Positions 19,001 through 22,000 of a stretch of 64,000 nt of DNA are shown here, one piece after another. Source of the stretch: Escherichia coli (GTDB lineage: Bacteria > Pseudomonadota > Gammaproteobacteria > Enterobacterales > Enterobacteriaceae); NCBI RefSeq assembly GCF_050920415.1, contig NZ_CP169310.1. One strand, written 5' to 3'. The position numbers are program-made. Each line of letters opens with the position of its first letter. The stretch's first letter is position 1.

Positions 19001-22000
19001 AAAGGAATGAAATGGTGAAACTGAGAGGAAAGGAAAGCGGTGACGAATCATGTCACCATATACAGAAAGATGTCTAATGGGGACTCTTCAGGTACCTGAA
19101 GAATCCCCATAACGCATTTAAAAGACACCCATCAGATATCCTCAAGGTATCCTATGAATTATTGACCTATTGCACCGTCACGTTCAAGCTTCTCTCTTAT
19201 AGCCTCAATAATATATGAGCTAAAATCCAGAGATGTTTTACTGGTCGCTTTAAGTTCCGCATGTGCTTCAAAATACGACAGCGGTATGGCCTTAAGATTC
19301 TTAGCCTTCGTCCTGGCAGCTACGGGACGACCTGAAACTTCCTCTGCACCTTCATTTGGCTGAGACGGGACTGTTGCTGTTACGGCAGAAGAAGAAGTTT
19401 GTAATCTGGCAGAATCCACCAGGTTTTTCAGTTTTTCAGCCTGTGCACTAAATTTCGCTTTGCTCATGAGATAACCCAGGATGTTTGTTAGATACTCAAA
19501 AGATATCTATTAAAACCCTAAAGGATACTATATGGATACCCAATGGATATACCTTACTGTTTATTATTTTCAATCAGATGATTGATTTCTTCGATCAGGG
19601 CAATAACTTCCTTACCTCCTGCCGAATAGCGCCCATGAACAGACTCAGTGATTCCCATCCCAGTCTCAATGACATCCTCAAATTCTGCACGAGCAGAAAT
19701 GCGGCTCTTCATCAGCTTCAGATGTTTGAACGATGGCAGGATTGCATCAAGCTTAGGGAATTTCTTCTTGTTAGGATTAACTTTACAGAGATACAGGTGA
19801 GCAATTATATCGGTCCCCATGATAGAGCTGATTTCGTCCAGTACTCCATCAAAATGCATCAAACCAATACGCTCAGTCAGGGAATCTTTTGAAGGGACAA
19901 TAACGCAGTCTGCAAAGGCAATCGCAGTACGGGTAAGATCTGAGTCAAATCCCCCACAGTCAATAAGTAACGTCTTATCGCTGTTCTTGTAGGGAGTCAT
20001 AATTTCGATTAACTCATCCACTGTTTTGGGTACTTTCACGGAAATTTCTTTTCCTTCAGGTCTCAGCCCCAGAATGATAGAAAGCCCAGTATGAGTATCC
20101 AGATCAACTGTATCAGACTTCATTTCACCAACAATGTTTACGGATGAAGTTGTCTTACCCACACCACCTTTGGGATGCGTATTAGCAATAACAGGCATAG
20201 TGTATCTCCAGAATCCAAATGTAATACCCATAAAGAACCCCAAAGACATCTTTCGGATATCCAAGAGGTACTCAACAGATGTTTTTTTACTCTATACCAG
20301 TCCGGCATGTCAACAGAATATGAAATACCGATAATATATCCATGAGATATCCGAAAGGGATTTAAAAAAGTCAGAGCTTAAGGAATTCTTTTGAGCATAG
20401 ACACTGCATCGGACTCAGGCATCGCAAACTGCACCCGGTGCCGTGCAGCCACATCCAGTGCAAACACCTTCGTGTAGACCTCTGTTGAGCTGATGGACTT
20501 ATGCCCCATCAGGCTCTGCAGGACCTTCAGTGGAATACCGGCATACAGCATATGCATCGCATAGGAGTGGCGGAATGTATGTGGTGTGACAAGAACAGAG
20601 AACGTCACACCGTCAGCAGCAGCGGCGGCAACCGCTTCCCCAATCCAGGTCCTGACTGTTCTGTCCGTCACTTCCCAGATCCTCACTTTCTCTGTTCTGC
20701 CGGTGCGACAGTTACGCCGCTCCCTGGGGATTTTCAGTGTTGCCACCATCGTCTGCAGCTGGCTGAGGTACCAGGCATCAGAGATGCGGAACCAGCCGGT
20801 GAGTCTGCTTACCGGCCGGCGATCTTCCTGCCGTTCTGGCTGTCTTTTCGGTCCGTTGTTTCAGGGTCGCAAGCTGCACAAACGGATACGGAGGCGCGAG
20901 CGAAAAATCCCCCCGTGTCAGCGCCAGTGCTTCATTAATGCGCGCACCGGTGTTCCACAGTGTGGCCAGCAGCATCTTGCGGCGCAGATCCGGGACGTAA
21001 TGGAGCAGGGCACTCACTTCCGGAGCCAGCAGATATTTCGGCAGTTCATCATGGACCATCGACATCTGGCGAAGTGCCAGAGCTGCCGGATAATCAATGA
21101 CAGCAGGAAGTTGTGGAGACTGTCCGGCAGAATACACTGCCGGTACCATGGCTGCAGACTGGCTGTGTATAACGGAGCCTGACATTTATATTCCCCAGAA
21201 CATCAGGTTAATGGCGTTTTTGATGTCATTTTCGCGGTGGCTGAGATTGTCAGCGCCAGTGATATAAGACGGTAATTCGCCATTTGGATTGTCCGCTCCA
21301 CCCAACATGTTGTTTCCTTAAGGTTCTCACACCAGAAAGGACATCAACATGCTGAGCAGAGAGGACTTTTACATGATAAAGCAAATGCGCCAGCAGGGCG
21401 CGTACATTGTCGATATTGCGACTCAGATTGGTTGCTCTGAACGGACGGTCAGACGCTACTTCAAATACCCTGAACCGCCAGCCAGAAAAACCCGCCACAA
21501 AATGGTTAAGCTGAAACCGTTTATGGATTACATCGACATGCGCCTGGCAGAGAATGTCTGGAATAGCGAGGTTATCTTCGCGGAGATTAAGGCAATGGGT
21601 TATACGGGCGGACGTTCCATGCTGCGTTACTACATCCAGCCCAAACGTAAAATGCGTCCGTCAAAAAGAACAGTTCGCTTCGAAACTCAGCCAGGATACC
21701 AGCTCCAGCACGACTGGGGCGAAGTTGAGGTGGAGGTTGCCGGCAACGGTGCAAAGTTAACTTTGCGGTTAATACGCTGGGGTTCTCCCGCCGCTTCCAT
21801 GTCTTCGCCGCACCAAAACAGGATGCTGAGCATACCTACGAATCACTGGTTCGCGCCTTCCGCTACTTCGGTGGTTGATCCTACCCTCGTAATATGGACA
21901 CTGCTCTAAGCGAGGTTCTGGTTTTCAAATTGTTCCGGACTGAGGCCGCCACACCAACTGTGCCGTCGCCAGCGATTGTAATCACATTCGATACAATTAA

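Follow-up and report, generated by a model that had tools for sequence, protein, structure and literature searches.

A tyrosine recombinase gene split by one inserted base

The window, the whole 64,000-nucleotide stretch of Escherichia coli DNA analysed here, carries on its minus strand an 808-nt pseudogene of a tyrosine recombinase at 20378-21185, recognized from its open reading frames (ORFs), from alignment and from matches to the Pfam profile PF00589. The intact allele of this gene measures 807 nt and encodes 268 amino acids. Two minus-strand ORFs divide the pseudogene, in frames one base apart. The N-terminal ORF (135 aa, 20778-21185) holds the catalytic arginine Arg-I, R82, whose codon lies at 20942, and the probable catalytic lysine, K126. 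The C-terminal ORF (123 aa from an internal ATG, 20378-20749) holds H202, R205, H228 and the nucleophile Y237; no Shine-Dalgarno motif can be read in the sequence before its ATG.

We placed the lesion by pairwise alignment with the intact 807-nt allele of pCFSAN004179G (NZ_CP012501.1), which is 99.3% identical. It consists of one additional base at gene nucleotide 401, after codon 133, which reads A in the direction of the gene (T20785 on the plus strand). Its context is CCGC[A]TCTCTGATG (CCGC[A]TCTCTGA), with no homopolymer. The extra A is missing from the intact alleles of NZ_CP012501.1 and of plasmid F, and is found in those of RM9088 and MFDS1022581. The stop codon of the N-terminal ORF, TGA at 20778-20780, is created by the frameshift, 5 nt 3' of the inserted base. 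As the frame is lost after codon 133, R82 and K126 are parted from the half of the active site that contains the two histidines, the second arginine and the tyrosine, and no single reading frame carries all catalytic residues.

The two ORFs match consecutive segments of PF00589: profile positions 2-66 for the N-terminal one (E = 0.0079) and 109-168 for the C-terminal one (E = 1.5e-13, 51.3 bits). Deletion of one base in silico yields a continuous protein of 268 aa that spans positions 2-168 of 172, with 65.4 bits against a cut-off of 27.1 (E = 7.3e-18). The original prediction of a tyrosine recombinase at 20378-21185, with its N- and C-terminal parts in separate frames, is borne out by these matches. 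It had set the frame change around 20750-20780: the frames do differ, but that interval is the gap between the ORFs and the indel lies 5 nt outside it. The repaired ORF is continuous as expected, at 268 rather than about 265 aa. The proposed inactivation by a frameshift also stands, given the one extra A that comparison with intact homologs located, as had been suggested, and the RefSeq designation "frameshifted" at the equivalent position.

Relationship to F-plasmid ResD and other recombinases

The repaired protein is identical to ResD of plasmid F (WP_000016982.1) in 249 of 268 residues (93%), and the genes share 92.5% nucleotide identity. WP_000016982.1 is encoded directly downstream of ccdB in F, by the gene resD, alias the D protein gene; the window pseudogene lies directly downstream of a ccdB remnant, in synteny with F. 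By this identity and position, the pseudogene is the ortholog of F-plasmid resD. The description "multimer-resolution-like" in the original prediction was therefore apt, the F protein being a multimer resolvase.

With its profile match and catalytic residues, the repaired protein falls within the PF00589 superfamily. Alignment to E. coli XerD pairs R82, H202, R205, H228 and Y237 with R148, H244, R247, H270 and Y279 of XerD, respectively, while K126 was assigned as the catalytic lysine from its motif alone (GKQTHRLVPL).

The ResD of plasmid F is a site-specific resolvase whose rfsF target sites lie upstream of oriV-1 and of ccdAB-resD (PMC4398462). The window gene resembles its F counterpart in its catalytic residues and in its place right after the ccdB stop codon. 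Unlike in F, it is frameshifted, and ccdA, the ccd promoter, most of ccdB and oriV1/rfsF are deleted; RepE and sopABC are not next to it either, and a ParA-family gene is found there instead. Of the elements of an F-type ResD/rfsF system, the window thus retains the orthologous recombinase gene and lacks both the rfsF site in cis and the ccdAB promoter.

On the Salmonella plasmid pSLT, the orthologous resolvase gene rsdB is co-transcribed from the ccdAB promoter (PMC5065971). From its description, the RsdB (Rsd)/crs system of pSLT and pSDL2 is similar in that a ResD-family gene accompanies ccdAB on a virulence plasmid (PMC5065971). The pSLT gene, however, is intact and expressed, whereas that of the window is a promoterless pseudogene. 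The RepFIB-linked protein WP_001066958.1 is a paralog with the same compact, single-domain build; contrary to the window gene, it is intact, encodes 246 aa and lies beside the RepFIB initiator gene, outside the window. XerC and XerD belong to the same superfamily, and the best matches of the repaired protein among solved structures and NCBIfam models are Xer-type recombinases. It differs from them by its score (82 bits, against an equivalog cut-off of 330), by its shorter length, with only about 50 residues before the catalytic domain, and by the absence of a cer/dif-like site.

Inheritance of the frameshift

One alternative is that sequencing or assembly introduced the extra base by error and that the true gene encodes an intact 268-aa resolvase. 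Single-base indels are the commonest error of long-read assembly, and some related records contain numerous genes flagged "frameshifted", such as ehxD and ehxB in NZ_CP169400.1. The original prediction had itself offered an error in a homopolymer as an alternative; the inserted A, however, lies in no homopolymer. A 59-mer that spans the insertion occurs exactly in 15 complete plasmids of RefSeq E. coli genomes, and its mismatch to intact alleles is the one-base gap. These 15 independent assemblies come from four sources, FDA-CFSAN, USDA (RM9088, from a crow), the Korean MFDS and a Japanese bovine survey, and from at least four laboratories. In PLSDB, seven records are 99.8-100% identical over the region, insertion included.

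The insertion also travels with other markers. Five lineage-specific substitutions are common to the window, RM9088 and MFDS1022581, the carrier alleles included in the alignment (3 of the 15), and the junction between ccdB and an IS21-family sequence is common to all 15. Since the same insertion recurs in 15 assemblies, with the same substitutions in the aligned carriers, we regard the one-base frameshift in resD, from these comparisons, as real and inherited rather than a read error. The non-homopolymer context and the agreement among assemblies leave the error explanation with a negligible probability. The status of the gene as a pseudogene was already known: RefSeq labels it "site-specific integrase; frameshifted" in NZ_CP012500.1 and flags it as frameshifted in NZ_CP042296.1 and NZ_CP169400.1, and this call is correct.

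Decay of the surrounding module

Next to the pseudogene, 62 nt are left of the 3' end of ccdB (21186-21247, minus strand). They correspond to positions 81-101 of the 101-position NCBIfam CcdB model, and homology to F and to NZ_CP012501.1 ends at 21247. The annotated 40-aa "hypothetical protein" WP_001364100.1 (21186-21308, minus strand) reads from the ccdB tail into the left end of an IS21-family sequence; judging from these two parts, it is a ccdB/IS21 chimera and no real gene. The IS21-family fragment itself occupies 21248-21871 on the plus strand, starting with its left end TGTCAGCGCC... and containing a frameshifted and truncated istA. It stands, in the opposite orientation, in place of the 5' part of ccdB, ccdA, the ccd promoter and the oriV1/rfsF-like region.

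An IS3-family element (21872-23130, minus strand), absent from pMFDS1022581_1, is inserted where this fragment breaks off. The far edge of the deletion is marked by the remnant of a MarR-type regulator gene (23135-23229, minus strand), homology to the intact sister plasmid resuming at about 23134. Homology to F and NZ_CP012501.1 thus breaks 62 nt into ccdB and returns in the regulator remnant. The IS21 fragment and the IS3 element fill this gap, and the window has consequently lost ccdA with the sequence upstream of it, the ccd promoter and the 5' part of ccdB (~80% of the gene), a loss that the original prediction had not mentioned. Upstream of the pseudogene, no promoter-like site was found on the minus strand; expression from the ccdAB operon promoter is precluded by its replacement with the IS21 fragment.

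In NZ_CP012501.1, the intact sister plasmid, the sequence preceding ccdA is homologous to F oriV1/rfsF but diverged (~59% identity). It contains an imperfect inverted repeat, ACATGATGTGGTGTC-N16-GACACTGTATGTTGT, equivalent to F 45981-46034; we call this repeat rfsF-like by its position and its partial conservation with F, not by the published rfsF core sequence. A sensitive blastn search with the F and NZ_CP012501.1 sequences as queries returned only chance-level matches to oriV1/rfsF-like sequence, both in the window and over the full length of NZ_CP012500.1. The deleted region probably held the recombination site of the resolvase. The whole oriV1/rfsF-ccdA-ccdB-resD module has decayed, resD included.

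An IS21-like element, ISEc62, was also seen beside ccdB and resD on an unrelated 72-kb plasmid (NZ_CP068154.1, 33217-33838). It may represent an independent insertion of the IS21 family into the same module.

Host plasmid and other resolution systems

The p7v-like STEC/ETEC chimeric virulence plasmids (PMC10100065), to which the window belongs, occur in E. coli and in Escherichia cryptic clade I and carry ehxCABD, two copies of sta1, K88-like fimbriae and a T6SS. The nearest PLSDB record is pCFSAN004180G (NZ_CP012500.1), 99.994% identical to window positions 17301-64000.

Recombinases that could compensate for ResD were seen on this near-identical sister plasmid, outside the window. The intact 246-aa ResD paralog WP_001066958.1 (NZ_CP012500.1, 190661-191401) adjoins the RepFIB initiator gene and shares 48% amino-acid identity with the repaired ResD over 239 residues; it is, by this relationship, a candidate for the working multimer resolvase of the plasmid. 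NZ_CP012500.1 also encodes an intact Tn3-family serine resolvase. It is plausible that such on-plasmid systems, which would fit the "other systems" of the original prediction, resolve dimers in place of ResD. The dependence on host Xer/dif envisaged in the original prediction finds no support, because a search of the window and of NZ_CP012500.1 that tolerated up to 4 mismatches in 22 against the dif arms found no cer/dif-like site (two 11-bp XerC/XerD arms, 6-8 bp apart).

Interpretation of the locus

Could the split gene still yield a functional recombinase? A recombinase made of the two separate pieces was considered and dismissed, as the C-terminal ORF lacks a ribosome-binding site, residues 134-147 would be missing, and there is neither a promoter nor a target site. 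A +1 ribosomal frameshift, similar to that of prfB, could in principle restore the full-length protein. The 0-frame stop codon follows the insertion by 5 nt (CAU CUC UGA U), and a +1 shift at CUC-UGA brings back the original frame; skipping the U of UGA would give a 268-aa protein that differs from its ancestor only by L134H and S135L. The upstream sequence, GGUUCCGCAU, contains no Shine-Dalgarno-like stimulator, however. In contrast to the established CUU-to-UUU slip of prfB, the tRNA-Leu that reads CUC is not expected to re-pair with UCU, the +1 codon. Moreover, the insertion is derived, being absent from F and the intact sister alleles. CUC UGA shows none of the features of a prfB-type site: a shift-prone codon, a stimulator resembling a Shine-Dalgarno sequence and conservation among orthologs. 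With the native promoter and target site deleted, even a full-length protein would have nothing to act on, and the substitution pattern of the gene is relaxed. We therefore discard a programmed shift, whose probability we judge to be negligible as well.

The substitutions can be polarized with the sister allele and F. Four derived changes in the window lineage are nonsynonymous (V28A, V140L, M154R and R159C) and one is synonymous, which corresponds to a dN/dS of 1.39 from just five changes. The intact sister allele differs from F by 19 nonsynonymous and 46 synonymous changes (dN/dS = 0.12). The two ratios, 4:1 and 19:46, differ with p = 0.037 in Fisher's test. With counts this small, the pattern is consistent with drift after inactivation.

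A further question is whether the loss of ResD was adaptive. An active ResD/rfsF system might destabilize or rearrange a large mosaic plasmid, so that the module would be knocked out more than once. In pCFSAN004178P_02 (NZ_CP012498.1), the resD ortholog (3111-3916) has indeed lost one base independently (CCC to CC near gene nucleotide 192, a -1 frameshift), and an IS3-family element (about 4767-6190) interrupts the spacer of the rfsF-like inverted repeat that precedes an intact ccdAB. Furthermore, rfsF sites have been proposed as hot spots of segment exchange in IncI1 and IncR plasmids (PMC8004404, PMC9412624). Against this stand the number of events, two only, one of which lies in a short homopolymer of a PacBio-era assembly, and the intact alleles that persist in close relatives, 08-00022 and N96 among them. 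Neutral decay is sufficient, because the plasmid family is generally riddled with IS elements and pseudogenes; we hold an adaptive loss to be very improbable. Only marginally more credit is due to the broader proposition that ResD/rfsF was lost at least twice in the p7v-like family, enzyme and site each time, as a result of selection against it in large IS-rich mosaics that have a second, RepFIB-linked system of the ResD family.

Altogether, we are highly confident that what survives here is the dead relic of an oriV1/rfsF-ccdA-ccdB-resD module of the F type, derived from RepFIA, on a p7v-like STEC/ETEC chimeric virulence plasmid. The ancestral ResD, a tyrosine recombinase of 268 aa, would have been transcribed together with ccdAB and would have acted on plasmid dimers, resolving them at an inverted repeat of the rfsF type that preceded ccdA. 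In this lineage, an IS21-family insertion accompanied by an adjacent deletion eliminated the promoter, ccdA, the 5' ~80% of ccdB and the region of the site. The single A after codon 133 cut Arg-I and the lysine from the His-Arg-His-Tyr half; we infer that it came second. The gene would finally have drifted, accumulating its four amino-acid changes. From the sequence, recombinase activity is expected to be completely lost, and dimers are presumably resolved now by the RepFIB-linked ResD paralog or by the Tn3-family resolvase of the plasmid.

The RepFIA-derived ccdAB-resD stability module has thus fully decayed in this lineage, with the loss of a toxin-antitoxin pair, a resolvase and its probable site. 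The frameshift provides a stable lineage marker, common to at least 15 sequenced plasmids. The case is otherwise an ordinary one, that of an inherited pseudogene of a well-known plasmid resolvase.

Other features of the window

The window differs from NZ_CP012500.1 in its IS content. An intact IS21-family element (istA, 390 aa; istB, 265 aa) occupies 15176-17300, within a umuC remnant, and is absent from NZ_CP012500.1; no PLSDB record matches this IS arrangement at 15176-17300. Conversely, the IS421 copy that NZ_CP012500.1 carries near window position 2150 is missing from the window.

Partition functions are encoded at 6952-8267, 17357-18746 and 19159-20198: two pairs of the ParM/ParR type and an ATPase of the ParA family. 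Downstream of ParA, a 102-aa ORF is annotated as "molecular chaperone GroEL" and has no Pfam match; it may be an unrecognized partner of ParA rather than GroEL.

A 1.54-kb duplication, 99.1% identical between its copies, is found at 32199-33738 and 51273-52814. Both copies include sta1, which encodes a heat-stable enterotoxin, and each is bordered by remnants of IS91 and IS3. The window also places two metabolic operons on a virulence plasmid, at 37790-43815 and 55929-60525. One is a gentisate-pathway cluster, composed of genes for 3-hydroxybenzoate 6-monooxygenase, an FAH-family hydrolase, an MFS transporter and a LysR regulator, with maiA and gtdA; the second is a full fdnGHI operon, encoding formate dehydrogenase-N.
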